Below are positions 3,036 through 49,198 of a DNA stretch of 64,000 nt, in pieces; position 1 is the stretch's first letter; each line of letters begins with the position of its first letter. The notes beneath the pieces were generated by a model that worked only from the letters and a program-made list of their open reading frames with translations, was not told where the DNA came from and did not search any database. This stretch comes from Rhodanobacteraceae bacterium. Lineage in GTDB: Bacteria > Pseudomonadota > Gammaproteobacteria > Xanthomonadales > SZUA-5. The stretch is from positions 14 through 64,013 of the forward strand of contig JANOQN010000065.1 in the NCBI GenBank assembly GCA_031422315.1. The letters run 5' to 3'. A program made the position numbers and the translations under genes.

Positions 3036-3569
3036 ATGAAAATCGCTATGTCACCTAGCGCGCCGACGCCCGATGCGGAACTGTTCGAGTCGCTGTATGT
3101 GGAGCTAAAAGCCCGCGCCCAAAGTTTGCGCAGGCGTTTTGACGCACCCACGCTCAACACCACGGCCATCGTGCATGAGGCCTTCCTTAAGCTGGCAGAA
3201 AGCAAGCACCAAAGCGTTGATCGCGCACATTTGCTGCGCACCGCAGCGCTGGCTATGCGACAGATCCTGTTGGATCACGCGCGCGCATGGCAGGCACAAA
3301 AGCGCGGTGATCGAAAGCTTACGCACATCACGCTGACCGATCTGGAGCTGCAGGGCGAGAACGCGCCAGATCAGCTGTTCGAAATGCTTCAGGCATTGGA
3401 TCGACTGCAGCAAGTCGATGCTCGCTGCCACGAAACCTTTTTACTGCGCACCTTCGCTGGCCTTTCTTTAGAAGAAATTGGGCAAATGCAGGGCGTGTCG
3501 CACATGACGTGTTCTAGAGATCACCAAACTGCACGTGCCTATTTGCTGAGTGCGATGGATCCGGGTTGA
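3036..3569 (+). CDS. ECF-type RNA polymerase sigma factor (PF07638 / TIGR02999-like), with no adjacent kinase
   Basis: The translation ..LFESLYVELKARAQSLRRR..TAIVHEAFLKLAESK..LRTAALAMRQILLDHARAWQAQKRG..LSLEEIGQMQGVS.. parallels the sigma at 37927-38475 block by block. The start is uncertain (3036 or 3048). The ORF-track start 2967 runs through the palindromic repeats. Confidence 0.8.
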   Translation: MKIAMSPSAPTPDAELFESLYVELKARAQSLRRRFDAPTLNTTAIVHEAFLKLAESKHQSVDRAHLLRTAALAMRQILLDHARAWQAQKRGDRKLTHITLTDLELQGENAPDQLFEMLQALDRLQQVDARCHETFLLRTFAGLSLEEIGQMQGVSHMTCSRDHQTARAYLLSAMDPG

Positions 3570-3705
3570 GGAATGCACTGACTGCTGACGACTCCTGCCT
3601 GTAATTGGCGCGCAGATTTCCACAGGACATTCAATGAACCGAGCTTCAAAGATTTTCACCTTCGCTTAGCAAGCAATTTTTCTGAGCGCGCCGGTTTTTG
3701 CCGCG

Positions 3706-4585
3706 ATGGAGTCCGATGGCGTGGTAGCGGACGGGGCTGCATTAAGGACGACGTTATCGACGATTCGAATGATTGCTTGCCGGGCGGCACCCACGACCTC
3801 ACGAGATCCCAGAAAGATCCGCCGACGCCTAGCAGCCCGACACCGACACCGACACAAACGCCAGCACCAACACCTGAAGACACACCGCAGACCCAACACG
3901 ACGCGGGTGGCGACCCCGCCGCCGAAACGCCCGACTCGGCTGAGCCCGAAGCAGCTAGCGATGAAGGCAGTGAAGCCGCCGACGAAAGCGAAGAATCTGC
4001 AGACGAAAGCGAAGATTCGACCGCCGAGGGCGTAGGTTCCGATGAGGAAGATTCGACCGCCGACGGCTTAGGTTCCGATGACGAAGATTCAAACGACGAA
4101 TTGCGAAAAAGAATTTCGAAGGATTACCGGCGGCGAGCAGCTGTGCGAAGGAACGCCTGAACAGATTCGCCAAAAAGAGCAGCGGCTCGACGGATGGCTC
4201 GACGACATGAAGCGTGTACGAGAACAGCAGCTCGCCTCATCGCTCGACGAGGAAAAGCGCCGTGCCGTCGCCGACCCTGTCACGCGGACCAAGCCTTTCC
4301 GAAACGTCGGAGCATCAGGTTTGTTCATAACGGCGGGTACCTCGCCGATTTTTACGTCTATTGGCAGTCGCCGTGTCGGCCGGGCAGTTGGGCTAGCGGG
4401 CGCAAAACTGGCGGCTCCGAATTTCTCGCCATCCTGAACTCTGCAACTAGCATAAAAATCCGAGCAACCAACATGAGTGGGATGGTGTGGGATTGATTTT
4501 TGAGCGCAACGAGTTGCAGCAGACTGGCGAGCGCTGTTTCAAGGTCTCTGGGAGCTCACTTAACCCTAAGGTGAGCGACTGTTAG
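3706..4585 (+). pseudogene. Frameshifted gene: Pro/Thr-rich and acidic linker plus a C-terminal domain resembling cholesterol-dependent-cytolysin domain 4
   Basis: Plausible coding signal hops frames. Frame 3 (3777-4160) gives PTPTPTQTPAPTPEDT..SDEGSEAADESEES... Frame 1 (4078-~4320) gives EQIRQKEQRLDGWLDDMKRVREQQ..KPFRNVGASG. Frame 3 (~4315-4496) gives FVHNGGYLADFYVYWQSP..SEFLAILNSATSIKIRATNMSGMVWD*. Frame 2 (4502-4585) gives ERNELQQTGERCFKVSGSSLNPKVSDC*. The last two pieces together resemble the ..AYVAQFEVAWDE..IRIKARECTGLAWEWWRDV..VSIWGTTLYPG.. layout of CDC domain 4. That comparison is from memory, not from a search. Confidence 0.45.
4011..4097 (+). repeat. 36-nt tandem repeat (about 2.4 copies) encoding an acidic EDSTA(E/D)G(V/L)GSD(E/D) unit
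   Basis: GAAGATTCGACCGCCGAGGGCGTAGGTTCCGATGAG (4011-4046), GAAGATTCGACCGCCGACGGCTTAGGTTCCGATGAC (4047-4082), then a partial GAAGATTCAAACGAC. Confidence 0.85.
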
Positions 4586-9836: not shown

Positions 9837-11633
9837 CTAAAACCTCCACACATTCGGCGTGTACTTAATCGTATTCGCCTGTACTTCGGTAATTCGATTC
9901 AATGCAGCTTGCGTGCTGCCTACATTATTGCGGCTCATCCAGCCCGCTGCTGCACCGGCGGCCTGCCCTATTGCGAATTCTTCGGGTTGTAGGCGCGTCG
10001 ATGTCGATGCCCAAAACGATTGCGCGATAGTTTTGCCAGCTACCAATAGGTTCTCAGTGCTTACGTTGGTCAACGCACGAAACGGAATGTAGTACGGGTA
10101 AGGATGCACCACCGCTGGCGTGCCGGCAGCGCCGGTACAGGCGGTCGATTTAATTGGGTGAATGTCGAGCGGATAGTTCGCCAGCGCTACTTTATCGGCA
10201 AATACTTTGCCAGTTTTGCTGGCAACCGTTTCAGGCTTGAAATCGCTGGATGTCAGTTTGAAATTACCCAAACCCACACTACGGCGGGTCGAGCGTAAAT
10301 ACGGAAAGCGCGTCAAACCCGAAAACGTGCCGGTGATTTCCGTACCGATGGTGATGCGCGCGGCGGAGCTTGCCGGGGTGCGCGCTTTCATCCAGTAGTA
10401 CCAGCCGATCGCGTGTTTTTCAGATTCCGCAAGCGCGGTTAAGTCCAAGCCACCGGCCCAGCCTTGCGTGGCTTCAGCTTGACTGGCCGCTTTGGATTTG
10501 AACAGCGTGCGGTACGGATAATCGTTGCCGGTAGTCCAATTTTGCAGGCTGATATTGTTGGCTAAATCTGCAACCTTGTATTCGGTGGTGAAATTACCGC
10601 CGCCAACAATTAGCGAGCCAGCAGGGTTATGCACCCGACGGTACGCCCAAATCTGCGACCAAGTAAAGCTTCTGCCTGCACTATTCGTATCAAATGCATA
10701 GTGATTCGGGAATGGCACGGTCCAATTCGGCGCGTTCTCAATCGCCGCACCGGAGGTGCCTTTGTACTTCATAAAAAACGGAAACACGATCGCTTGGCCG
10801 CAGGCTTCATTGGTGCTCATGCTGGCTTCGTTATTGCCAGTTTCAGTGCCGACCAAATAGCTTGATCCGGAAGTAGCCAGCACATCGCCAAACTCACTCG
10901 CGTCGATAACCACCAGCCCGCGCATGCGCGCCGTAATCGTCAACACGGATTTGGTCCAGCGGCGTGAATTAACCGGGCTATACCAATCGCTAACATCACT
11001 CGATAGCGTGGCATCGAAGCCATCCATGGTGGTGGCCGGGGTTGCGATGCGCTGGGTCGCGATCACGCTGGTGATTTTGCGAACCACTGGCTGGCCGGCG
11101 GCGGACGTTACAGCAGTATTGGATTTGCGCACGACGGTGTTGTAAATCACCCGCAAATTGGGCGTGTTGGCGAGCGCCGGGGTTATGAAATCGCGCAGCA
11201 AATTTTTATCGGTGCTGGCGTTAAAACTTGAATTGAGCGGCAAGAAGCAATCATCAAAACCTGCCACCCAGCAATTGCCGTTAGTACCACCCGCGCCGCC
11301 CAACTGACGCAGCCAATCGCGCAAAATAGGCGGCTGATTCTCATAAATCTTATCGACATCGCCCGACTTCACCAGCGCGTGCGCCGCAGTTGGTTTATCG
11401 GCGGTGTGCCACGCATGATCAATTGCTGGCGTGTTGAGCAGCTGCCCACCGGCCTGATTAAAGGGTTCAAGCAGGCAGGTAAATGCGCCATCTTTTGCAC
11501 TGGTTAGCGCAGCGGACAGCGCGGCGGTGCTGCCACCGGCGATTACGACATCACACTGCACGGTTTCGGCGGTTTGCGCGTAAGCGCTTGAGCTTAAAAC
11601 TGCGGCGATAAGTAAAACGGCGGGCTTTTGCAT
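9837..11633 (-). CDS. Secreted FAD-dependent oxidoreductase (PF12831-like)
   Basis: Signal peptide MQKPAVLLIAAVLSSSAYA, then the dinucleotide-binding motif CDVVIAGGSTAALSAALTSAKDG. 598 aa. Confidence 0.8.
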   Translation of the reverse strand: MQKPAVLLIAAVLSSSAYAQTAETVQCDVVIAGGSTAALSAALTSAKDGAFTCLLEPFNQAGGQLLNTPAIDHAWHTADKPTAAHALVKSGDVDKIYENQPPILRDWLRQLGGAGGTNGNCWVAGFDDCFLPLNSSFNASTDKNLLRDFITPALANTPNLRVIYNTVVRKSNTAVTSAAGQPVVRKITSVIATQRIATPATTMDGFDATLSSDVSDWYSPVNSRRWTKSVLTITARMRGLVVIDASEFGDVLATSGSSYLVGTETGNNEASMSTNEACGQAIVFPFFMKYKGTSGAAIENAPNWTVPFPNHYAFDTNSAGRSFTWSQIWAYRRVHNPAGSLIVGGGNFTTEYKVADLANNISLQNWTTGNDYPYRTLFKSKAASQAEATQGWAGGLDLTALAESEKHAIGWYYWMKARTPASSAARITIGTEITGTFSGLTRFPYLRSTRRSVGLGNFKLTSSDFKPETVASKTGKVFADKVALANYPLDIHPIKSTACTGAAGTPAVVHPYPYYIPFRALTNVSTENLLVAGKTIAQSFWASTSTRLQPEEFAIGQAAGAAAGWMSRNNVGSTQAALNRITEVQANTIKYTPNVWRF

Positions 11634-23201: not shown

Positions 23202-23786
23202 ATGCCTGAACGCGTAGAACTTTCAGAACTACCGAGCACGCTGAAATCTGAGCGGTTAAGACTTCGGGCATTTCATCCTCGCGATGCCGCGCAGCTGGCT
23301 AAACTCGCCGGGGTTTATTCGGTCGCCAGATACACACTCGGCATTCCGCTGCCATATTCAACGGCGGCAGCGAAAGCCTGGATTGACGCCTTGCCAGCTC
23401 GGCGCGCGCAAGGCATCGAGCAAATCTATGCGATCAGTATGGCGGATTCGACTGTGCTAGGCGCGATTAGCCTAGCGATCGAGGCCGAACATCGCCGCAT
23501 TGAAATCGGCTACTGGATAGGCGAGCCCTCGCGCGGCAATGGCTTTGCTAGGGAAGCGCTACGCGCGCTGCTGCCGGAGATTTTTAACGCCGGATATTCG
23601 CGGGTTTATGCGCTGACTTTCCTTGAAAATCTTGCGTCAATGCGGCTTTTGCGTGAGCTTGGATTTACCCGTGAAGGTACGCTGCGCCAGCATATCGTTA
23701 AATGGGATGAGCCAATGGACGTCATCTGTTTCGGCATGAGCGCAGCGCGCGCTAAGCGCTGCGGACTCATAGAGAAAGGCTTATAA
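23202..23786 (+). CDS. GNAT family N-acetyltransferase (RimJ/RimL-like)
   Basis: ..LRLRAFHPRDAAQLAKL.. and ..IGYWIGEPSRGNGFAREALRALL.. are typical of Acetyltransf_3 members. 194 aa. Confidence 0.85.
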   Translation: MPERVELSELPSTLKSERLRLRAFHPRDAAQLAKLAGVYSVARYTLGIPLPYSTAAAKAWIDALPARRAQGIEQIYAISMADSTVLGAISLAIEAEHRRIEIGYWIGEPSRGNGFAREALRALLPEIFNAGYSRVYALTFLENLASMRLLRELGFTREGTLRQHIVKWDEPMDVICFGMSAARAKRCGLIEKGL

Positions 23787-24761
23787 ACCCAAAAGCGCGC
23801 GCTCGGCGGCTTTGAAAACGTCAGGTGATAGTTTGACGTTTATGGTCGCAAGATTTTGTTCTAACTGTTCGAGTTTGGACGCGCCTAAAATCACTGTGCT
23901 CACGTTCGGATTGCGCAAACACCACGCCACGCCGAGCTGTGCTAGCGGCACCCCAGCCTCTTTGGCAACGGCAGCAAGCCGCTGAATTTGTTGGAATTTT
24001 TGCATTTTTGTTTCGCCCATGGCAAAGCCTTGTAGCCATTCTAGGCCCGGCAAACCAAAGCGATAGTTTTCGTCAAATTTCTCAAAGCTTGAGTATTTGC
24101 CAGATAGCAGTCCAGAAGCCAAAGGCGACCAAATTGTGGTGCCCAATCCCTGCGTACTTTGATAGAGCGGCAGATACTCGTTTTCGACGCGTTCTCTAGC
24201 CAGCAAGTTGTATTGTGGCTGCTCCATCATGGGCCCGATTAGGTGATTTTTTACGGCAAATTCTTGCGCCGCCAAAATATCTTTCGCCGCCCATTCTGAT
24301 GTGCCCCAGTAAAGCACTTTGCCCTGCATGATCAGCTGATGCATGCTCCAGGCGATCTCTTCAATGCCTACTTCAGGATCAGGCCGGTGGCAAAAATACA
24401 GGTCAAGATAATCAACCCGCAAGCGCACTAATGCTTGATGACAGGCTTCAATAATATGTTTACGGCTCAAGCCTTTTTGCGTCGGCTTGGCTTTTTCCGC
24501 GCTGCCAAAAAACACCTTGGATGAGACGCACCAAGAATCACGGCTATAGCCTAGCTGCTGCAATGCCTCGCCCATGAGATTCTCAGCTTCACCATTCGCA
24601 TAGCCTTCGGCATTGTCAAAAAAATTGACACCAGCGCCGTAAGCCACACTCAATAGCTCTTTAACCTGTACCAGCCCAAGCTGGCGCCCAAAAGTAATCC
24701 ATGCGCCAAACGATAGTGCAGAGAGTTTTAGCCCAGTTTTGCCGAGTCGACGATATTCCAT
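23781..24761 (-). CDS. Aldo/keto reductase (Kv-beta-like subgroup)
   Basis: MEYRRLGKTGLKLSALSFGAW..NFFDNAEGYANGEAE..LDLYFCHRPD.. The start is moved to ATG 24761 (Met75 of the track ORF). The upstream extension has no support. Confidence 0.9.
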   Translation of the reverse strand: MEYRRLGKTGLKLSALSFGAWITFGRQLGLVQVKELLSVAYGAGVNFFDNAEGYANGEAENLMGEALQQLGYSRDSWCVSSKVFFGSAEKAKPTQKGLSRKHIIEACHQALVRLRVDYLDLYFCHRPDPEVGIEEIAWSMHQLIMQGKVLYWGTSEWAAKDILAAQEFAVKNHLIGPMMEQPQYNLLARERVENEYLPLYQSTQGLGTTIWSPLASGLLSGKYSSFEKFDENYRFGLPGLEWLQGFAMGETKMQKFQQIQRLAAVAKEAGVPLAQLGVAWCLRNPNVSTVILGASKLEQLEQNLATINVKLSPDVFKAAERALLGL

Positions 24762-24963
24762 TTGAAGCTCCTTAAATTGGGGAGAAAAAGTACTGATGTT
24801 AAACACGATAATTTCTTCAAGTCGTCCAAAGTATCTACCGTATCGCGTGTGTTTTACACCCCTTGATTGGGCCGGAGTTTTAGCTTGCTTTCCGTGCGCC
24901 AGTGTACTTGTCGAATTTTCAACGCGCTTTCCGCGCCAGCAATTAGCGCTAGTAATAAATAGC

Positions 24964-25302
24964 TCAAACCGCAGTATCCGCATTCGAAAAGCGCCAAATC
25001 AGGTAAATCGTGGCAGTGACTGCCACCCAAAATAGCAGCCCAATAAGCGTTGCCGCATCATCCGATACGACGTTTGCTTTGCGCGCAAACGAATATTTTC
25101 GGCTTTTTCCATAGCGCTTACGGCCTTGCACCACAAACGGCTCAACTTGATAGCGTCCCAACGTAACAATTGGCACCACCACATATCCTGTCAGATAGCC
25201 CGCCACGTACAAAATGAGTTCAAGGATTGGCCACAAAATCAGCTCAGCGAGTGCGCTCCCGGGCACTAATTTAGGATCCGTGTTGGACTGCTCAATACCC
25301 AT
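24964..25302 (-). CDS. Small hypothetical membrane protein (candidate cassette gene)
   Basis: 112-aa ORF with two or three hydrophobic helices. No family was recognised. Confidence 0.55.
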   Translation of the reverse strand: MGIEQSNTDPKLVPGSALAELILWPILELILYVAGYLTGYVVVPIVTLGRYQVEPFVVQGRKRYGKSRKYSFARKANVVSDDAATLIGLLFWVAVTATIYLIWRFSNADTAV

Positions 25303-25430
25303 CTTTTTCTAGGCTGCGCACACTGAGCGCTGCCAGAAATACAGATCAAAACCCTGCTCCTTATAACTGGCATGGCGATTTGCATGATCGCTTTTAATCA
25401 GGGCAGGGCTTATTCGTGAGCTATCCTTAT

Positions 25431-26153
25431 TCAGGCATCAGCGACCAACCGCTGCATGCCCCTGGGCCCTGGTTCTAGCCTTGCACGCAGACCCGCCGAC
25501 TCGAATGCCTCACACGCCACCTCAGGCCGTAACTTTAGCTTGGGGTAGCTGCTCACCTTGGTGGCCCACTTCCCTTCTAGCCGCTCAAGCAAGATGTCGT
25601 GAACCTGGATATGGTTCGGGTGTTCCTCCAAGAAGCACGTGAGGATGCGATCATCGTCGGCCCGCACCGGAATGAAACGGCTGTCCCCGCTCGGCGGCTT
25701 AGTATAGTCTCGAAAGGTAGCAACGAATCGCCCGCCGGGCTCCAAACTCTCGGCGACGCTCTGGGCCAGCAAGCATACCGATTCGACGCTCTCAAGGTGT
25801 GTGAGCGTGTCTCCCATACAAACGATGAGTCGCGGCTTGAACTCGCAAGGTAAAAGCGCAGGAAAAGACAATAGATCCGCGCACTTGACGTCAATGGGAA
25901 GCGATTCGGCGAGCCTGGAGAGTTCAGCCAGAAGAAGCTCTGATGAGTCGATGGCGAGGACTTGATATCCAGCTCGAGCAAGAGGGATGCTGTGCATCCC
26001 AAAGCCCGCACCCAGATCTACGGCTAGACCAAGCCCAGGCACGAGGCCAAGCAGGTCAGACTCGCCAACATTGATGGCTGCGGAGACACCGCCTGCCATC
26101 CAAATATAGATAGGAGCCAAGTGACTTGAGTAGTGCTCGTGGACAGTGGTCAT
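25431..26153 (-). CDS. Class I SAM-dependent methyltransferase (candidate cassette gene)
   Basis: Motif I VDLGAGFGMHSIPLARAG, post-I LAIDSS, and ..LEPGGRFV.. 240 aa. Confidence 0.85.
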   Translation of the reverse strand: MTTVHEHYSSHLAPIYIWMAGGVSAAINVGESDLLGLVPGLGLAVDLGAGFGMHSIPLARAGYQVLAIDSSELLLAELSRLAESLPIDVKCADLLSFPALLPCEFKPRLIVCMGDTLTHLESVESVCLLAQSVAESLEPGGRFVATFRDYTKPPSGDSRFIPVRADDDRILTCFLEEHPNHIQVHDILLERLEGKWATKVSSYPKLKLRPEVACEAFESAGLRARLEPGPRGMQRLVADA

Positions 26154-26165
26154 GCGGTTTCTGAT

Positions 26166-26262
26166 GCCTAACGTTTAATTCAGCCGACAGGCGGCCCGAG
26201 CGTTGATGATAGCTCGATATCGCAAAAGATCGCAGAGTTGGCCTTCGACTTTCAGTTATGCC
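26166..26262 (-). other. attC-like recombination site (best example in the window)
   Basis: On the minus strand, just 3' of ORF 26280-26783, the sequence reads GCATAAC-TGAAAGTCGAAGGCC-[loop]-GGCCGCCTGTCGGCTGAATTAAAC-GTTAGGC. The outer boxes fit RYYYAAC...GTTRRRY, and GTTAGGC is a consensus core site. The inner arms pair imperfectly with bulged bases. Length is 97 nt. Confidence 0.55.
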
Positions 26263-26279
26263 ACAAATGCCCTTGGTAC

Positions 26280-26783
26280 CTAGCGCGCTTTGTCGTGCTC
26301 AAGCTGATTCAGCAGTTCCGCAATATGCGATTTTAACGTATCCCGCGTCGCTGCATAGTTGATGGAAGCGGGCGGAACATCTGCCCATTGATAGGATTTC
26401 ACTGAAGCACTAGAGACAGTCGAGGGCAAAGCAACACCAATGAGAACTGCGTGGCTTGAAGACCTGTAGTCTGCGGATGTTATTGCAGTGGGATGAAAGC
26501 GAGAGACATCAAATCCTTCGGCGCTTAACCCGGCAAAAATTGCTGGTGGGGCAGTATCAGAATCTATCGCGGTTCCGCGCGAGATCGCCCAGTATGGGAG
26601 GTTACGATTCGACGCGATTTCATTGAAATACGTAGCAGCCATTAAGCTCTTCACGTTTCCATGCTGACAGAGAAAAACAATCTGCGACTGCCCAGAATCA
26701 GTGCGCGTAGGCGCTGCAGAGCAAGCCGTAAGTATAAAAGTAATTGCAAACGTGAGCGCCACAAATAGCCTTTGAAAACGCAT
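26280..26783 (-). CDS. Putative lipoprotein, low-molecular-weight phosphatase/arsenate-reductase-like fold (candidate cassette gene)
   Basis: Lipobox-like ..FILTAC.. The stretch IVFLCQHGNVKSLMAATYF resembles the CX5R(S/T) P-loop of LMW-PTPs, but with K in the Arg position. 167 aa. Confidence 0.55.
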   Translation of the reverse strand: MRFQRLFVALTFAITFILTACSAAPTRTDSGQSQIVFLCQHGNVKSLMAATYFNEIASNRNLPYWAISRGTAIDSDTAPPAIFAGLSAEGFDVSRFHPTAITSADYRSSSHAVLIGVALPSTVSSASVKSYQWADVPPASINYAATRDTLKSHIAELLNQLEHDKAR

Positions 26784-26807
26784 TGCCTTATCTCCTAGAG
26801 GTTGTAG

Positions 26808-26866
26808 AACAAGTTAACAAGCCGCAGTTCGCCGAATGCCAAATTGCCGACTTGATTAACTAATCA
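26808..26866 (-). other. Short attC-like imperfect palindrome
   Basis: On the minus strand between two ORFs: TTAATCAAGTCGGC-[loop]-GCGGCTTGTTAAC. The arms pair, leaving unpaired bases (TTAA-T-CAAG-T-C..). The site ends in GTTAAC(T). It is shorter and less canonical than 26166-26262. Confidence 0.4.
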
Positions 26867-26873
26867 CCAACGA

Positions 26874-27266
26874 TCACCCATAAATCATATGAGTCCAATA
26901 GGCCAACCGCGCACTCACAAATAACAGGCTGATGCTTAAAACTGCGGGTATTGCGTACCGACGAGGCTCAACACGCGCCTTGTAGCCCAAAACACAGCAG
27001 TAAAGTGCTGAAAAAGCGGATATACCCGCTAACGCATTTAGCAACCTTAATAATGATAATTCAGTAATCGGTATCAAAGGTGATTCGCGAAATTCCGGCG
27101 GTCCAGGCTCCAATGCAAACAACGCGAAGAAGTCGAAAACAAACTGCATGTTGGTTTCAGTTAGGTATAGACCGTTGCTAAAAGCCAAATTTGCGCGATA
27201 CCAAAAAAGGAATGAAACCACGAGAAATAAGTAGCTTAGAAAACCCAATCTCGCTTGTTTTTGCAT
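26874..27266 (-). CDS. Hypothetical membrane protein (candidate cassette gene)
   Basis: 130-aa ORF with four hydrophobic segments. It looks AT-richer than its surroundings by eye. Confidence 0.6.
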   Translation of the reverse strand: MQKQARLGFLSYLFLVVSFLFWYRANLAFSNGLYLTETNMQFVFDFFALFALEPGPPEFRESPLIPITELSLLRLLNALAGISAFSALYCCVLGYKARVEPRRYAIPAVLSISLLFVSARLAYWTHMIYG

Positions 27267-27271
27267 GACTG

Positions 27272-27314
27272 TCCTAACGATCTGCTAAGCCGACGCCACG
27301 CGATAGCGTTCGGT
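27272..27314 (-). other. Degenerate or half attC-like site
   Basis: The minus strand reads ..CGTGGCGTCGGCTTAGCAGATC-GTTAGGA. This matches the L'-R' half of the sites at 48808-48898 (GCGTCGGCTTAGCGCGAAC-GTTGGGG) and 26166-26262. The 5' half is poorly defined. Confidence 0.3.
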
Positions 27315-27322
27315 GAAACCAA

Positions 27323-29269
27323 CTACTCAAACCCATTCGCAAAACTATAGTCCGAAGCCGTTTGCGCCAACCGCGTACCAGTCAAACGCGCGGCAAGCGC
27401 AGACTGGCGATTCGGAAGTGCGCTACCCCAGTTGGGCACATCAATAGTGGGTACCGGATTACCGAGCGCTACTGGAACTGCCGGCGGCGCAGGGTTATCC
27501 GAGTTGTGTTGGCCGACCACAATCACGTGCCCAGCGGCTTGCGCTATGCCGACCAACTTGGTGTTATCGCCGCCCAAACCCGTTACTTGATTCCAGGCGC
27601 CCACCACCAATGAGCTATAGCGCAAGCTGGCTAAATCCGGCGAATAGACCCGCACGAACTGGTTCCAGGCGCTGGGCACGAACGGCGTTAGGTTTGGCCT
27701 GGGCATGGTTTGGAACGCATCGGTTGTGGTGACGGTGCGGCGCCCGGCGCACATCACTGCAATGCTGCCATCAGTTAGGATGCTGATTTCGCCGCTAAAC
27801 CCGGCATCCGCGCCGCAGCGCGTGGTGTTCAAATCAGGCCAGCCGCCATTTGGGTTTGGCCAACCGCCGAGCAAACCATCAGGATGTGCTGCGCCAAAAT
27901 TTGTGCTGCCATCAACCAGTTCGCCCAAGTAACTGGCAGCGCGAACGCGACCATCTAGCCCATAACTTGCTAGCCAGCTCAAATGAATATTGCCATTCGT
28001 GCCGGAGAAGGATTTTTGAAAGCCGACTAAACCCGGCGATGCGGCAATCTGATCACCCTTCCAAAAATTAATGGTGTTATTGCCGTGCGTGCGTGCCAAA
28101 ACTACAAGCCGATCGTTGGTGTGATCAAGCGCCAGCCCGTCAACATATTGATCGGGTGAGGAATTCGCTGCCGTCTCTTGATAAAGCCGATCCCACCACT
28201 TCAAGCTGCCATCAGCGCGCATGGCGACGATTGCCGGTTCAAAATCTGGATTGCCGCCTGGCAGCGTGCTTTTGGTGCTGTAGCCAAAGTAGATATCGTT
28301 ATTGCGCCGATCCACTGTAATCGCACCGACGCGCTGCGTTTGCGGGCCTTGGGAGTTGTAACCCGTGTAGCCTGGGCCTGTGGTTAAACAAGTATTAGTG
28401 CCGCTCAGCGCGCAAGCGCTGGCGAAAAAATAATCATCAGGAAAGCGGCCTTTTCGACCGGTATTGCCGTTCGCATCGATGCTAGTGGAATCGAAATCAG
28501 ACTGTGTAAGGCTGCGTAAACTGCCGCGCCGGCTGGCTTTCATGACCACCGCGCTGTAAGCCAATGCCGGTGTGCCGTTGTAGCTGCTGGCGGGTGTGCC
28601 GTCCCATTCGGTGTCCGATATCGTCCAGTGCGCGTGCCAATTATTGACGACATCGGGCCCGCCGGTAGCAGTTAAGCGCTGAATCGCGTGCCAATCGTTG
28701 GCGAAATAATTGCCCAGCGCGTACACCACTTTGCCATCGCCACCGACGTCCCAAGGCTGGCGCTCTTTATTATCGCCGCTGGCGCGCACGTTGACTAAAA
28801 AGCTCAGCGCCGATGGCACCGTGCCTACGAAATTGCCATTGAGCTTGGCCAAATAGTAACCGTTAGTTACCGCACCATCTCGGCTGCCCGAAATATAAAT
28901 GCTGCCAGTCGCCTGACCCGGCACTTCGGTGCTGCGGATTTTGAAGACATCGCGCACACTGCCCGCCGGGAAATGCACGACGCGCAAAATTTGCCCTAAA
29001 TCGGCGCTCACTTGCAAAACAAATCCGATTTGCCCTGGCGCGCTTGAATCCGCACCAGTTGCGGCGATGGCGACGCGTGGCACGCCTGCCGCAATCCAAT
29101 CTAAATTTTGCGCCTGCCCGGCGATCAGTAGCGTGCCATCCGATAGCGCATGAACGTCATTAAAGCGCTCTTGGCTATCGTTACCGGCGTAAAACACGCG
29201 ATTAGCGGCACTGGTAAATTCGCTAATGCTCGCGAACATAATGATCGACATCCAGAAAATACTTCGCAT
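27323..29269 (-). CDS. Secreted hypothetical protein (beta-propeller-like) with C-terminal FANGFE tail
   Basis: 648 aa. N-terminal signal [21 protein letters not shown]. It ends ..[10 protein letters not shown]. The last 15 nt, AATGGGTTTGAGTAG, nearly match the 3' end of ORF 1971-2837. Confidence 0.8.
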
Positions 29270-29445: not shown

Positions 29446-29904
29446 ATGGCATTCAATCTGCAAGTTAATGGTAAAACCGAAATCATCGACGCGGATGCCG
29501 CTATGCCGTTGCTCTGGGTGCTGCGAGATACGCTCAAACTTACCGGCACCAAATACGGCTGCGGTATTGCTCAATGCGGTGCGTGCACGGTGCTAGTTGA
29601 CGGCATACCGATGCGATCTTGCATCACCCCAGCCAGCGCGCTGGTCGGACAGAAAATCAGCACCATTGAAGGCGCGAACAGTGCGGCCTCAGGGGCTCTG
29701 CAAAGCGCGTGGCAGGCGCTAAACGTGCCGCAATGTGGCTATTGCCAAAGCGGGCAAATATTAAGCGCTACAGCGTTACTGGCTCAGAATAAAGCGCCTA
29801 GCGACGCGGAAATTGACGCCGCCATGGCGGGCAATCTATGCCGCTGCGCAACTTACGGGCGCATACGTGCAGGTATCAAACAAGCCGCAGCGACGCTGGT
29901 TTAA
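29446..29904 (+). CDS. iorA: (2Fe-2S)-binding small subunit of a molybdo-hydroxylase (isoquinoline 1-oxidoreductase alpha-like)
   Basis: [53 protein letters not shown]: both 2Fe-2S cysteine clusters are present. The start is moved to ATG 29446. Confidence 0.92.
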
Positions 29905-29964
29905 CGATGAGAGCCAAAAAAATGCCTAAGTTTAAATCCGAGGATAGCGTGAAAAAGAATTTAA

Positions 29965-30080
29965 TGACCATTCGTGCTGAGCTTGTCGAAGCAGGTAGCG
30001 TTAGGCTTCGAGATGCAAAAGCTTGTGTAATCGAAGGTTGCCGCTCTGCCCTTCGACAGGCTCAGGGCGAACGAGTTTGT
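29965..30080. repeat. Long palindromic repeat element inside the iorA-iorB spacer
   Basis: TTCGTGCTGAGCTTGTCGAAGCAG (29970-29994) and CTGCCCTTCGACAGGCTCAGGGCGAACGA (about 30046-30076) are imperfect inverted copies. This is the same family as 15750-15880. Confidence 0.6.
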
Positions 30081-30132
30081 CGTAATCACTTTATATCTTT
30101 TTTGACCGAGTCGACATTCTTAAGGAAACCTC

Positions 30133-32373
30133 ATGTTCAATGAAAAACAAATCGCGCGGTTTAGGAGTACTGACTCCGCTGCTTTGAAATCCACCGAATC
30201 GACACGCCCCACCTTGCTCGCAAGGCGCGACTTTTTATTCGCCAGCGCACTGATCGGCAGCACCTTGATCATTGGCTGCAAATCCTCACCCGCCACGGAT
30301 AGCACAGCTGAGGCCGCCAAAGCGCTGCCTGTACCCATCAATCCTTTTGATGCTTACATTGGCATTCAAGCGAACGGCAAAGTCATGGTTTACTCCAGCC
30401 AGTTTGAGATGGGGCAAGGCGTATATCACGGGCTGGCTACGCTGGTCGCTGAAGAAATGCAGATTGATGTGGCGGGCATCCAAGTTGAAGGCCGCGCGGG
30501 CAATCCAGCGTTCTATGGTAATCCGATGATGGGCGGCGCATTTCAACTCACGGGTGGCTCATCCAGCATGCCCGGCTCGTGGGAGCGCTATCGAAAAGCC
30601 GGCGCAATGGCAAGAACCTTACTACTATCGGCGGCTGCGAAAAAACTCACAGTACCAGTAAGCGAGCTTGCTATTGATCAGGGCAATATCTTGCATAGCA
30701 GCACTGGCACGCGCCTGCACTTCGGCGAAGTGGTGAGCGAAGCTGCCGCGTTGTCTTTAGATTTTGAAGTGCCGTTAAAAGCAATCGCCGACTGGACTCA
30801 AATCGGCAAGGATCAGCGTTTTCGCGTTGACGGCGGCGCGAAAACCAACGGCGCGCAGCGCTACACGATTGATATCGATCTACCCGGCATGCTGAGCGCC
30901 GCCATTTTGCATTCGCCAAAATTTGGCGGCAAGCTCGTTAGCTTTGATGCAGCTGACAGCTTGAAGATTTCAGGCGTACTGGAGGTGGTGAAAATATCGC
31001 GCGGCGTAGCGGTAGTTGCAGAGAATTATTGGGCTGCGATGCAAGGCTTGGCGGTGTTAAAAGCTACCTGGGACGACAGCAATGCCGAAAGCCGATCTAG
31101 CGCGCAAATTTTTGCTGATTTCGACAAGCTCGCGAACTTACCTGGCACCGTGGCCAAAACCGCGGGTGACGCCAGCAAAGCGCTCAAATCTGCGGCAAAA
31201 AGTATCAGCGCGACCTATCACTTTCCTTATCTTGCGCACGCTGCAATGGAGCCGCTCAACGCGGTGGTCCACAAATCAGGCGATGAGCTGCATATTTATG
31301 GTGGCCTGCAAATGCCGGACATGGTCAAAAGCGTATGCGCAAGTATTTGCGCGGTACCGCCGGAGCAAGTCAAACTGTTTGTGATGCAATCTGGCGGTGG
31401 CTTTGGTCGGCGCGCGGTAGCCGATTGCGATGTATTTGCCGAAGCAGCCGAAATTGCCAATGCGCTTAAATTTCGCGCACCGATTAAAGTGCAATGGACC
31501 CGCGAAAACGATATGCGCGGCGGCCGCTATCGGCCATTGCATGTGCATCAAGTCAAAGTCGGCATTGATGCTTCGAAAAAAGTGAGCGGCTGGCAGCATC
31601 ATATTGTTGGGCAGTCCATTCTTTCAGGCACGCCGTTTGAAGCCATGTTGAAAAACGGCGTCGATGAAAGCATGACCGAGGGCGTACACAATAGTCCTTA
31701 TCAGCTAGCTGATTTCGAGCTGCATATAACGCACCCGGTGTCGCCAATTCCAGTGCTATGGTGGCGTTCGGTCGGGCATACCCACACCGCCTACGTTATG
31801 GAAACTATGATCGATGAAATCGCACAGCTAACCGACGTTGACCCAGTTGCGCTGCGCCTGCAATTACTGCCCAAAGCGGCACGCGAACGCGGCGTTTTAC
31901 AATTGGCCGCCGATAAAGCGGATTGGGCCAGTCCGCCCGCGCCAGGACGCTTTCGCGGCATTGCCGTGCATTCGAGTTTTGGCAGCTTTGTCGCGACGGT
32001 TGCGGAAGTTAGTAAAGCAGCGGATGGCAGCATTAAAGTCGAGCGCTGCGTGGTGGCATCGGATTGCGGCGTGGTGATCAACCCCGATATTGTGCGCGCG
32101 CAGCTTGAAGGCGGCACTGGTTTTGGGCTCAGCGCATTCTTGGGCGAGCAATTGACTATCGAAAATGGCGCGGCGGTCGAAGGCAATTTCGATGCCTACC
32201 GAACCTTGCGCATGGATGCCATGCCGATCATTGAAACGCATTTATTTGCTTCCACCGAATCACCCACCGGCATTGGCGAATGTGCGGTGCCAACCATTGC
32301 ACCCGCCGTGGCAAACGCCATTTTCAAAGCCACAGGTAAGCGCATTCGAACGCTGCCGTTTTTGCAGGCGTAG
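30133..32373 (+). CDS. iorB: Molybdopterin-binding large subunit of a molybdo-hydroxylase (isoquinoline 1-oxidoreductase beta-like) with a Tat-type leader
   Basis: 746 aa. Twin-arginine-like leader ..LLARRDFLFASALIGSTL.. The aldehyde-oxidase/xanthine-dehydrogenase a/b-hammerhead and MoCo-binding pattern continues to ..GIGECAVPTIAPAVANAIFKATGKRIRTLPF. Confidence 0.92.
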   Translation: MFNEKQIARFRSTDSAALKSTESTRPTLLARRDFLFASALIGSTLIIGCKSSPATDSTAEAAKALPVPINPFDAYIGIQANGKVMVYSSQFEMGQGVYHGLATLVAEEMQIDVAGIQVEGRAGNPAFYGNPMMGGAFQLTGGSSSMPGSWERYRKAGAMARTLLLSAAAKKLTVPVSELAIDQGNILHSSTGTRLHFGEVVSEAAALSLDFEVPLKAIADWTQIGKDQRFRVDGGAKTNGAQRYTIDIDLPGMLSAAILHSPKFGGKLVSFDAADSLKISGVLEVVKISRGVAVVAENYWAAMQGLAVLKATWDDSNAESRSSAQIFADFDKLANLPGTVAKTAGDASKALKSAAKSISATYHFPYLAHAAMEPLNAVVHKSGDELHIYGGLQMPDMVKSVCASICAVPPEQVKLFVMQSGGGFGRRAVADCDVFAEAAEIANALKFRAPIKVQWTRENDMRGGRYRPLHVHQVKVGIDASKKVSGWQHHIVGQSILSGTPFEAMLKNGVDESMTEGVHNSPYQLADFELHITHPVSPIPVLWWRSVGHTHTAYVMETMIDEIAQLTDVDPVALRLQLLPKAARERGVLQLAADKADWASPPAPGRFRGIAVHSSFGSFVATVAEVSKAADGSIKVERCVVASDCGVVINPDIVRAQLEGGTGFGLSAFLGEQLTIENGAAVEGNFDAYRTLRMDAMPIIETHLFASTESPTGIGECAVPTIAPAVANAIFKATGKRIRTLPFLQA

Positions 32374-35236: not shown

Positions 35237-37183
35237 ATGATTCGCCAAATCTTTGCGCTTGCTTTGCTTTACACAAGTCAATCGCTGTGGGGGGCGACCT
35301 ACGTAGTCGACACCACGATCGACAACACTTCAACGCTGTTTTTACAATGCACCGCCGCGCCGAATAACTGCTCACTGCGGGGCGCCGTCCAAAAAGCCAA
35401 CGCCAATCCTGGGCCGGATGTCATTGAATTCAACGTACCCGCAATCGATGATGCAGGCTGCGATTCGGTTAGTGGCGGCTGCCGCTTCAACCTGTCAGGC
35501 ATGCCACTTAGCGTCTCTGAAGCCGTCAGCTTTGATGGCTATACGCAGCCCGGCGCGCAGGCCAATACGATTCCGGCGAGCCAAGGTGAAATGAATGCGT
35601 CTTTGAAGATAGAGCTTCTAAACGGCGGTGGCTCGGCAATCTTGGTTGCGCAGCAAAATGGGGGATTGATCGATGGATTATTGTCGGTGCAAGGGCTGAT
35701 TTTTGGCGTACATACCAACGCGATCGGGGCGACGAATCTTCGCAGCCTTACCGTACATGGCTGCTGGTTTAATTCGGCGTTAAACGGCCAGGTGGTCGAC
35801 GGTGGCGGCTCGCTAACTTATGTCACCAATGGCGATTCGGGCACCCCGTATATTGTCCGAATCGGCGGTCTGCTACCCGAACAGCGAAACTGGTTTCCCA
35901 ATGGCAATGTCAATCTAACCCCGCGTGCTTCTTTCAATCAATCGCCCACGTTCGATATGCGAATTGAAGGCAATCTTTTCGGGGCAGCCCGCGATGCTAT
36001 GACATCCGCTAGCGCAGCAGCGTTTCGATTCTATTCTGGGATTTCTTTTAGCCCACCGCCTGCCCCAAATTCGCTGCTGTTGATTGGCGGAACTGATCCA
36101 AACGCCCGCAATATTTTTGCCGGGATAGGCTATGGAATCGTCGGCGGCGGAGTAAATAACAACGTCGCAATTGTCAAAATCCAAGGCAATTACTTTGGCG
36201 TCGGAAAGGATGGCGTGACATCGATTCCGCTGCAATTCGGAGTCGACGCTGAGGGCGCAACTGTGGGTGGTCAAGCGCTAGGCGAAGGCAATCTTTTCGT
36301 GGGGAATCCATCGTTAGTCAAAGCAGCTTCAAAAGGCGTGACTAGCCCTGGACGTATGCGCGTGTTGGGCAATCGATTTCGCAACCACCTTGAGTGCGCG
36401 CTTTGTAATCCTGAGGAAGGTAGCACTTTCCTGCGCCCCAATGATCCAGGTGATGCAGATGCCTATGGATTCACCGGAAACACCCTACAAAACTATCCAG
36501 AAATTACCGCCGTTAGCCAAAACGGTGCGCAGTTAAGCGTTACCTATCGCGTCACTACCGCCTCTACAAATGCCGTGTATCCGCTTGATATTGAGTTTTA
36601 CAAAGCGGCTGGCTGGGAAGGCGAGGAAATTCTGGGACGCGATGTTTACAGCACGCCGGAGCTTGAAAAAACCGTTGTGCTGACCATCCCGGCGGGCACT
36701 TCGTTCAACGCGGCAAGCGATATGGTGTTGGCAAGCACCAACGCCGCCGCGCCTTTAGGTGGCTTCAGCCGGTTTAGCTGGCACCCTATCGTGTTGACAT
36801 TTTTGGGCAACGCGCCGCTGTCGTTAAACACGCCCACCAGCGTTCGCGTACGTGCACAATCGATTTGGAGCCCGTACACGCCGCGCGGCCAAGTCAGCAT
36901 TGATTTTGGCGGCTTAGGCGGTGGAACGCCCTGCACGCTGAATTTACAGCCCACGGCAAACCCCGGCGTTGCCGAAGGCAACTGCCAAATAACGGCAACT
37001 TCGATTCCTTTTAGCGGCATCTCGCAGCTGACTGCCAGCTTTCGCGTGCAAACCGGCATTCCCTTCGGCGGTGAAGATGGCCGAGTTGCCATCGCCATGC
37101 GAAATGCAGCGGTAATTCAAGACAACCTTTTTTGCCACGGTTTTGAAGATAATTCGAACGGTACTTGTAGGCCGTTGCCGTAG
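35237..37183 (+). CDS. Secreted hypothetical protein (parallel beta-helix-like N-terminal region), with an HGFE motif near the C-terminus
   Basis: Signal peptide MIRQIFALALLYTSQSLWG. The CSLRGAVQKANANPGPDVIEFNV motif is common at the start of beta-helix surface proteins. It ends ..DNLFCHGFEDNSNGTCRPLP*. Confidence 0.8.
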   Translation: MIRQIFALALLYTSQSLWGATYVVDTTIDNTSTLFLQCTAAPNNCSLRGAVQKANANPGPDVIEFNVPAIDDAGCDSVSGGCRFNLSGMPLSVSEAVSFDGYTQPGAQANTIPASQGEMNASLKIELLNGGGSAILVAQQNGGLIDGLLSVQGLIFGVHTNAIGATNLRSLTVHGCWFNSALNGQVVDGGGSLTYVTNGDSGTPYIVRIGGLLPEQRNWFPNGNVNLTPRASFNQSPTFDMRIEGNLFGAARDAMTSASAAAFRFYSGISFSPPPAPNSLLLIGGTDPNARNIFAGIGYGIVGGGVNNNVAIVKIQGNYFGVGKDGVTSIPLQFGVDAEGATVGGQALGEGNLFVGNPSLVKAASKGVTSPGRMRVLGNRFRNHLECALCNPEEGSTFLRPNDPGDADAYGFTGNTLQNYPEITAVSQNGAQLSVTYRVTTASTNAVYPLDIEFYKAAGWEGEEILGRDVYSTPELEKTVVLTIPAGTSFNAASDMVLASTNAAAPLGGFSRFSWHPIVLTFLGNAPLSLNTPTSVRVRAQSIWSPYTPRGQVSIDFGGLGGGTPCTLNLQPTANPGVAEGNCQITATSIPFSGISQLTASFRVQTGIPFGGEDGRVAIAMRNAAVIQDNLFCHGFEDNSNGTCRPLP

Positions 37184-37342: not shown

Positions 37343-37588
37343 ATGTCAACGGTATCCAAGATGATCACGCTTTCCCAGCACCAGGATGGTTGGATTAAAG
37401 CCCAAATCACTGCTGGAAACTACACCAGTGACAGCGAGTTTATTCACGCGCTGATACGCCGGGATCAAGAGCGGGTTGCGGAAATCGAGGCAATTCAAAC
37501 GGCGCTCATCGTAGGTGAAAACAGTGGCCAAGCCGTTTCATTCGACGTGTCCGCATTTAAGCAACGGATGCGCGCTGAGCTTGGCTGA
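37343..37588 (+). CDS. parD: Type II antitoxin, ParD family
   Basis: ..ITLSQHQDGWIKAQITAGNYTSDSEFIHALIRRDQER..IQTALIVGENSG.. is typical of ParD/COG3609. 81 aa. Confidence 0.9.
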   Translation: MSTVSKMITLSQHQDGWIKAQITAGNYTSDSEFIHALIRRDQERVAEIEAIQTALIVGENSGQAVSFDVSAFKQRMRAELG

Positions 37589-37871
37589 GTTTCGCCTAGC
37601 ACCCGCTGCAGAACGCGATCTCGAAAGCATCTGGCGTTACACCCAGTCACGTTGGGGCACCAACCAGGCTGATCGCTACACCGATTGCTTGGTGAACGCT
37701 TTTTCTAAGTGGGCGAATTCGCCCACTTCAGCCGCTCGATGCGAGCATATCCGAGCCGGATACCGCAGAGGTAATGTGGAGAGCCATGTAGTTTACTTCC
37801 TAACCATGGACTACGGCATTAGCATCGTTCGCGTGCTGCACAATCGAATGGATCCGGCTTGGCATTTATAG
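37581..37871 (+). CDS. parE: Type II toxin, ParE/RelE family
   Basis: ..FRLAPAAERDLESIWRYTQSRWGTNQADRY..HVVYFLTMDYGISIVRVLHNRMD.. The likely TTG start at 37581 overlaps the parD stop (TTGGCTGA). The track start 37515 would overlap parD by 74 nt. Confidence 0.85.
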   Translation: MAEFRLAPAAERDLESIWRYTQSRWGTNQADRYTDCLVNAFSKWANSPTSAARCEHIRAGYRRGNVESHVVYFLTMDYGISIVRVLHNRMDPAWHL

Positions 37872-48807: not shown

Positions 48808-48898
48808 CCCCAACGTTCGCGCTAAGCCGACGCCGCGCGGCAGATTTCATTTGAAACACTAAACGATTTCGGCAGCGGGTTACAGCCAAACGTTAGCG
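48808..48898 (-). other. attC-like recombination site
   Basis: The minus strand reads CGCTAAC-GTTTGGCTGTAACCCGCTGCCG-[loop]-CCGCGCGGCGTCGGCTTAGCGCGAAC-GTTGGGG. The inner arms are imperfectly complementary. It shares the GTCGGCT(T/G)A block with the sites at 26166-26262 and 27272-27314. Confidence 0.5.
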
Positions 48899-49018: not shown

Positions 49019-49198
49019 CTATGGTTCAGCAAGAATGTCATGACGGCCGATATCGCGAGGTACGGCTTGGCTGATCTTGACTAGGATGTGGTGGCTACCG
49101 TGTATGCGGTTGACCAGCCAACCTGCGGCCTTGAGCTTCATGATGGCTTCTTTGTCTGTTATGGGCCTCAGGATGTGTAGGGAGCGATCTAATCTCAC
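49019..49198 (-). CDS. HicA-like small ORF (possibly C-terminally truncated toxin)
   Basis: Not in the ORF track because it is under 60 aa. The translation is (V)RLDRSLHILRPITDKEAIMKLKAAGWLVNRIHGSHHILVKISQAVPRDIGRHDILAEP*, which fits the HicA/YcfA pattern L+..+.KE.I..L...GW...R..GSHH. The GTG at 49198 overlaps the stop of the upstream gene as GTGA. An alternative ATG is at 49141. Confidence 0.45.
   Translation of the reverse strand: MRLDRSLHILRPITDKEAIMKLKAAGWLVNRIHGSHHILVKISQAVPRDIGRHDILAEP

Follow-up and report, generated by a model that had tools for sequence, protein, structure and literature searches.

Three integron-type gene cassettes with decayed attC sites between core genes of a Rhodanobacteraceae bacterium: a probable array remnant without an integrase

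The DNA analysed here, called the window throughout, is a stretch of 64,000 nucleotides (nt) from Rhodanobacteraceae bacterium (GCA_031422315.1, contig JANOQN010000065.1, positions 14-64,013 of the forward strand). Four small open reading frames (ORFs) of 130, 167, 240 and 112 amino acids (aa) follow one another on its minus strand, between a gene for a 648-aa protein and an aldo/keto reductase gene (Table 1). An initial annotation, made from the letters of the sequence, had taken them for a run of four unrelated integron cassettes separated by attC recombination sites, with no integrase in view. All four ORFs were found where they had been placed. Three of them (130, 167 and 240 aa) are of cassette origin, as homologues of each were found beside attC sites in metagenomic arrays, but the 112-aa gene is native to the chromosome. 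The 2.06-kb block that holds the three cassettes (25267-27322) is very likely a piece of a cassette array that was stranded between core genes, has no integrase and carries decayed sites.

Table 1. Features at the cassette locus (window coordinates; the slash in G/TT marks the crossover point).
Feature	Coordinates	Strand	Remarks
Upstream flank gene, 648 aa	27323-29269	minus	Core gene, no Pfam family, function unknown; not a cassette
Truncated attC, right half only	27272-27314	minus	...GGCGTCGGCTTAGCAGATC-GTTAGGA; cassette 1 begins G/TTAGGA, ATG 5 nt on
Cassette ORF 1, predicted membrane protein, 130 aa, orphan family	26874-27266	minus	
Cassette 1 attC relic	26804-26873	minus	~50-nt imperfect hairpin; R' position mutated to GTTCTAC (26804-26810)
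Cassette ORF 2, lipoprotein, 167 aa, LMWPc (ArsC/PTP-like) family	26280-26783	minus	PF01451 in homologues; LTAC lipobox
Cassette 2 attC, full-length, decayed	26166-26262	minus	R'' GCATAAC ... R' GTTAGGC; cassette 3 begins G/TTAGGC
Cassette ORF 3, class I S-adenosylmethionine (SAM)-dependent methyltransferase, 240 aa	25431-26153	minus	Pfam Methyltransf_25
Right end of the presumably imported block	25267-25430	minus	Spacer with two hairpins, no recognisable attC
Small membrane-protein gene	24964-25266	minus	Called as 112-aa ORF, 24964-25302; native, not a cassette
Downstream flank, core aldo/keto reductase gene	23781-24761	minus	Pfam PF00248

Searches for attC sites were carried out with three home-built covariance models, R1, R2 and R3, used as proxies for IntegronFinder's own model. 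R1 was built from a single metagenomic array, L084. R2 is a general model of 16 sites from four metagenomic arrays; it recovered five of the six attC sites of an independent class 1 integron (estX-psp-aadA2-cmlA1-aadA1-qacL; L091) at 41-54 bits. R3 is a family model of 27 distinct ~96-nt attC sites in 36 metagenome contigs, which were retrieved by a pattern from the right half of the window site at 26166-26262 (TCGGCTGAATTNAACGTTAG). These 27 elements form the canonical R''-L''...L'-R' hairpin, with 93% of pair cells paired, and are arrayed with two to five sites per contig; intact members score 94-118 bits with R3. At 26166-26262 on the minus strand R3 gave 47.0 bits (E 5.6e-11 in the 64-kb window) over model positions 1-96, and its second-best match in the window reached only 12.7 bits; E-values from these home-built models are only approximate, but the gap of 47 to 13 bits is robust. 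The same site was also the top match of R2 in the window, at 14.1 bits (E 0.24 for the 64 kb and 0.01 for the 2.7-kb locus), in an alignment that leaves the L stem unaligned. That alignment, which would place R'' at GGCCAAC with a deleted L'', was superseded by R3, which supports GCATAAC and a full-length alignment. The negative result of R1 on the window was discarded and carries no meaning, because this model is too lineage-specific and gives the true, obvious attC sites of array L088 only ~12 bits. Rfam returned nothing at the locus, and a generic inverted-repeat search did not return the sites that had been claimed.

The R'' and R' boxes that had been named for this site, GCATAAC and GTTAGGC, are thus those of an attC homologue, and four of the five modelled R pairs form. 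The site is a true attC, but a decayed one. Its stem has 14 Watson-Crick pairs, 3 G-T pairs and 7 broken pairs among the 24 modelled. When folded as single-stranded DNA, its bottom strand reached -11.3 kcal/mol (z -0.07) and did not form the R/L hairpin, whose extrahelical bases mark the recombinogenic form. By comparison, the aadA1 attC and intact members of the family adopted the canonical hairpin at -16 to -27 kcal/mol. The spacer around the site (26154-26279) was less stable than its own shuffles (z +0.7 and +1.4). The spacers after the first two genes, which the initial annotation described as imperfect palindromes with the attC layout, do not look functional: the best of them folds no better than shuffled sequence, and the other folds modestly. 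The attC sites of the window are probably no longer recombinogenic, which would amount to a loss of substrate for the integron integrase IntI.

Homologues of the three genes were found as cassettes in metagenomic arrays. The methyltransferase has more than 5600 homologues across phyla. Among these, P0011 (63% identity) forms a cassette of L084, where about 20 nearly identical 78-nt attC sites lie among small same-strand genes (glyoxalase, GNAT, DJ-1, BLUF, SnoaL and DHFR_2/dfrB-type). The 5' junction of the methyltransferase gene is conserved, position for position, between the two loci as AAACGTTAGGCATCRGA...CGC-ATG, with AAACGTTAGGCATCAGAAACCGC-ATG in the window versus AAACGTTAGGCATCGGAGTTCGC-ATG in L084. 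Its local alignment score was 38 versus 14.6±2.1 for 1000 dinucleotide shuffles, none of which reached it. For the 167-aa protein a homologue, P0124 (63% identity), was found among the cassettes of L088; this contig of 3.2 kb carries seven attC sites of the classical type, ~112 nt each. The attC of this cassette starts with GGGCATATGCCGCATAAC, where the window reads GGGCATTTGTGGCATAAC; in the centre GCTATCATC is common to both, and 22 of 1000 shuffles were as good as this similarity at the 3' junction. The 130-aa protein has only three homologues among 5.8e9 proteins. P0243 (62% identity) is flanked on both sides by intact attC sites in L090, and P0242 (72% identity) lies behind an attC of the ~96-nt family in L089, which scores 59.9 bits with R3. 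This orphan family has been seen only beside attC sites; the similarity at its 5' junction was equalled by 25 of 1000 shuffles. The 112-aa protein had no relative in the metagenome scan, and its gene has no attC-like flank.

Close relatives of the locus were found via 90%-identity protein clusters. A contig scan seeded with the aldo/keto reductase returned only ~60%-identical genes from unrelated taxa, without synteny. The 648-aa gene is syntenic, with 91-94% aa identity, in L092 and L095-L097; the reductase (93-98% aa identity) is syntenic with GNAT, ABC and GDH genes in L092-L096. Between these two genes L092, whose flanks are 89-93% identical to the window in nucleotides, carries a spacer of 266 nt and a 100-aa homologue of the 112-aa gene, and L095-L097 (79-84%) have 763 nt with only a remnant of the small gene, the L097 contig ending just past the 648-aa gene. 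The three cassette genes are present in none of the relatives L092-L097. Homology with the relatives runs as far as the 648-aa stop codon (27326/27322) and resumes at 25265, and the native spacers of L092 and L095 share only chance 10-13-mers with the block, which is therefore lineage-specific. No attC was found in the native spacers of the relatives. The small gene is present, diverged, in relatives without the block: a GTG at 25266 aligns with the start codon of the 100-aa homologue in L092 (72% nt and 62% aa identity), and a remnant survives in L095 and L096. It is therefore native, and the cassettes number three, not four. Judged from this alignment, the true start of the small gene is probably the GTG at 25266 (100 aa) and not the ATG at 25302; the first 12 codons of the 112-aa call fall in the DNA of the block.

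Two metagenomes from freshwater sediment, X1 and X2, contain the locus of the window; there the same strain carries all three cassettes and the small native gene between the 648-aa gene and the reductase. A sister strain, strain B, occurs in X3-X6, which are runs of another study, and is known only from short assembled Logan contigs, not from reads. It is 95-99% identical in nucleotides from the methyltransferase to the reductase and ~90-95% identical in the 648-aa gene, and it has the methyltransferase cassette and the small native gene. The 130-aa and 167-aa genes (26234-27322) are missing from it: depth is zero over 26238-27271, and one contig per run links 27323 to 26233 through 51 other bases (in gene orientation, CCAACTCGCTGATAATATGCGCAGCAAATTCCACATGAGTGCGGGTGTCTG). 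The attC of strain B has its right 68 nt as in the window and a different left part. The possibility that its 119-nt spacer is an intact attC was ruled out, as the spacer does not fold (z +0.6). The left junction (GAG-TAG) is identical in the two strains, which differ in the left half of the attC and in their set of cassettes. Cassette content varies among relatives, but not with boundaries at the G/TT junctions that the initial annotation had proposed to compare: the break points lie at the 648-aa stop codon, at the attC centre (26233/26234) and near 25266. In X3-X6 many short contigs match only 26168-26199 or 27274-27314 and diverge at both ends, and the 32-nt L'-R' segment 26168-26199 has 6-27x the depth of the adjoining single-copy sequence; its depth is also raised in X1 and X2, in coarser depth bins. 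The same genome may therefore hold a large array of this attC family.

The other sites that had been proposed fared unequally. The half-site at 27272-27314 is real. It is the right half of an attC, a stretch that is multi-copy in six metagenomes; in X1-X5 the part 27274-27314 was found on separate contigs whose flanks differ. Upstream of it, intact copies have the complementary L'' (AGCCGACCGCC), and the window copy lacks R''-L''. R3 gave the region 27272-27333 only 6.5 bits in a search of the 2.7-kb locus. The 5' junction of cassette 1, GTTAGGA followed by 5 nt and ATG, has the spacing of the L090 cassette (GTTAGAA, 5 nt, ATG). The shorter site at 26808-26866 was not confirmed: the spacer 26784-26873 holds a hairpin with a modest z of -1.7, but the core reads GTTCTAC and the attC models missed the site (26804-26870; 4.2 bits in the 2.7-kb locus search). 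It is only a weak attC relic. The sequence TCGTTGGT after the stop codon of the 130-aa gene is common to the window and to L089 and L090. A sibling of the 167-aa cassette in X1 and X2, 92% identical, has an intact GTTATGC, then AGCA and TCTAGGAG, at its junction versus GTTCTAC, AACC and TCTAGGAG in the window.

The attC of cassette 3 is lost. In L084 the stop codon TAA of the methyltransferase gene lies inside the R'' box GCCTAAC, and the window counterpart reads GCCTGAATAAGG. The spacer that follows (25267-25430) folds into its two hairpins with z -2.1 and -2.5, gave no match with the attC models and is not homologous to the relatives' native spacers. The covariance searches have thus confirmed one significant site, by the home-built R3, but left the other proposed sites undetected. 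Recurrences of the L'-R' block had further been suggested at 48808-48898 and at about 34015, and neither is supported. The former (minus strand) is at noise level with R1 and R2 (9.8-11.2 bits, E 1-3), is absent with R3 and forms no hairpin; at ~34015 the attC models detected nothing. The stretch 48808-48898 reads CGGCTTA-N8-GTTGGGG and follows a short hicA-like ORF at 49020-49141 on the minus strand (MKLKAAGWLVNRIHGSHHILV...).

The absence of an integrase from the 64 kb, noted at the outset, was confirmed. No integrase family (Phage_integrase) was present among 47 ORFs of the window scanned against Pfam, and tblastn of IntI1 against the window found nothing (E at least 2.8). A complete integron, with intI, attI and the Pc promoter next to its array, does not lie here: the 64 kb contain no intI, with no separate search made for attI and Pc, and core genes border the array. 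In metagenome contig L131 an attC of the ~96-nt family (1204-1299, minus strand) is divergent from an integron integrase gene (3143-4090, plus strand), whose product matches IntI1 at 56% identity over 316 aa and is thus a candidate for the integrase cognate to the attC family of the window.

In the reading preferred here, the block would consist of three promoterless same-strand cassettes, each starting a few bases past a G/TTRRRY-type junction. Their attC sites stand at different stages of loss, the first reduced to its right half, the second with a mutated core, the third of full length with about one third of its stem pairs lost and the last gone. The block would have arrived as an array fragment and not through attC x attG insertion, because it opens with a truncated upstream attC and closes without an attC. 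With the 64 kb free of an integrase, it is probably frozen for IntI recombination. Transcription of the cassette genes most likely comes from the 648-aa gene by read-through; a promoter and terminator scan found fewer sites than in shuffled sequence and was uninformative. Recombination within or near the attC repeats, homologous or illegitimate, would account for the differences between strains, rather than IntI crossover at G/TT. Several points weigh on the other side. Of the three proposed sites, one alone can be detected statistically, and the other two are argued from short junction homology (p ~0.02 each) and from contig-end patterns in the assemblies. Co-transcription with the 648-aa gene is deduced from the short gaps alone. 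An integrase elsewhere in the genome may act in trans, and even an attC with weak pairing may retain a low frequency of recombination.

An unlikely alternative is that the locus is a still-active satellite array, a functional cluster of attC sites lacking an integrase (CALIN), on which an integrase encoded elsewhere acts in trans, so that strain differences reflect IntI-mediated gain and loss of cassettes. The strains do differ in cassette content, about half of CALINs occur in IntI-encoding genomes (PMC4889954), and the surplus depth of 26168-26199 in X3-X6 would fit an array of ~20 cassettes with the same attC family in the same organism. That surplus may, however, stem from other community members, and the break between the two strains falls at the 648-aa stop codon and in the centre of the attC instead of at G/TT. 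Moreover, of the sites themselves the first lacks R''-L'', the middle one has GTTCTAC for R', and the best one does not fold. A related proposal, also doubtful, holds that cassettes land or are exchanged repeatedly at the 3' end of the 648-aa gene, supplied by a sedentary integron of ~20 cassettes with the same attC family in the same genome. It is suggested by the identical left junction, after which the attC left halves and the cassette sets differ, and by the 32-mer, which tracks the organism at its raised depth in four runs. If it were true, homologous recombination in the attC centre would be a second, integrase-independent route for cassettes into the core chromosome.

Two further explanations are much less probable. 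That the locus belongs to the distal end of a large chromosomal integron of the sedentary type, with intI and attI just beyond the window, would agree with 64 kb free of integrase and with the abundance of the attC family in the same samples. It is very improbable in view of the flanks, which on both sides are core genes, syntenic in cassette-free relatives; and because the three models find no other attC in the 64 kb, the array is only 2 kb long and isolated. The initial reading of the locus as a CALIN or a decayed part of an integron therefore stands as regards an integrase-less, decayed cassette remnant, but not as regards a distal array end. That the genes are ordinary chromosomal ones, accompanied by chance attC-like palindromes or terminators, is hardly tenable. 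The spacers do fold poorly or like terminators, R1 and R2 gave E-values of at least 0.24 over the whole window, and homologues of the methyltransferase and of the LMWPc protein also occur outside cassettes (L082, L085 and L087). Against chance resemblance stand the R3 match exactly at the predicted site, the methyltransferase junction shared with a true cassette at a level that no shuffle reached, the confinement of the orphan 130-aa family to the neighbourhood of attC sites, and close relatives that lack all three genes (strain B keeps the methyltransferase). An integrase-less piece of a cassette array, stranded and decayed, remains the reading favoured by these results.

Further observations concern the genes of the locus and the rest of the window. 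The calls of a SAM-dependent methyltransferase and of a lipoprotein resembling low-molecular-weight phosphatases, made for the 240-aa and 167-aa products, were borne out by Pfam (Methyltransf_25; LMWPc/ArsC-like family) and, for the latter, by the lipobox. The 167-aa lipoprotein also has a signal peptide. Its motif reads C-Q-H-G-N-V-K-S versus C-X5-R-S/T of arsenate reductases and low-molecular-weight phosphatases, with a lysine in place of the catalytic arginine, and from this motif it may not be a classical phosphatase. The DHFR_2 gene of L084 (R67/dfrB-type dihydrofolate reductase; 9937-10185, minus strand) belongs to a family otherwise known from trimethoprim-resistance cassettes. Two ORFs of the window are of exactly 648 aa and without a Pfam family, the upstream flank gene and 35237-37183 (plus strand). 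They were considered as paralogues and found to be unrelated (BLASTP E 0.42), the equal length being a coincidence. In L093 and L094, from a more distant relative (74% identical in nucleotides), cysG and not the 648-aa gene stands upstream of the reductase; synteny therefore breaks at this intergenic position (window 24762-27322) independently of the cassettes. The native spacers of L092 (7600-7800) and L095 (7560-7780) contain a repeat resembling repetitive extragenic palindromes, GTTCGACAAGCTCACCACGAACG / GCCCTGAG..CTGTCGAAGG, and a similar unit apparently underlies a spurious ORF at 29838-30143 of the window (~29990-30110; peptide LRQAQGER). A group II intron at 114-1935 on the minus strand, with a reverse-transcriptase ORF at 114-1607 (RVT_1, E 5e-45) and the Rfam match group-II-D1D4-6 at 1712-1935 (175.7 bits), is the only mobile element of the window and lies ~23 kb from the cassettes. 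It was the sole Rfam match at the gathering threshold, and the three models found no attC beside it. A ParE-family toxin gene is present at 37515-37871 on the plus strand (PF05016, E 5e-14).

Integrase-less cassette clusters are common in genomes, and their origin and death are poorly documented. The present locus offers a natural series of zero, one and three cassettes at one chromosomal position in close relatives, with attC sites at varied stages of decay and intact attC sites of the same family in the same communities. It illustrates how cassettes can become ordinary chromosomal genes, and how an array may be remodelled through the repeated attC sequence itself instead of an integrase.

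Sedentary chromosomal integrons such as the Vibrio cholerae repeat (VCR) arrays of Vibrio have homogeneous attC families. Like these and the metagenomic arrays L084, L088, L100 and L114, the locus has a site (26166-26262) that belongs to a homogeneous family, of ~96 nt, and cassette genes of the usual kind, orphans and small enzymes. Unlike them, it has only three cassettes, no integrase that was found and degraded pairing, and its three sites derive from different attC types. With cassettes inserted at attG or other secondary sites (Loot et al., 10.1101/2022.09.11.507474) it shares a position outside an integron, beside a host gene that could supply a promoter. An attC x attG insertion is expected to start directly at TTRRRY and to end with a complete attC, whereas here a truncated upstream attC opens the block and none closes it, which suggests that an array fragment was imported by another kind of recombination. 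The closest likeness is to CALINs and to single attC sites lacking an integrase (SALINs) (PMC4889954; 10.1101/2022.09.11.507474): small size, cassette ORFs on one strand with attC-type sites, no nearby intI or intI pseudogene, and a place among ordinary chromosomal genes with no transposable element in the immediate flanks. It differs from them in having one significant site, visible decay and strain breaks inside an attC. A CALIN is formally called from at least two model-called attC sites (E <= 1) clustered within 4 kb (Cury et al. 2016, PMC4889954); with the proxy models only one attC passes, and by these the locus would fall short of this definition. By a strict count of the attC sites detectable with the home-built models it is a SALIN with relics, and otherwise a small CALIN. 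It is no new kind of system; the locus fits the known class of integrase-less attC elements.

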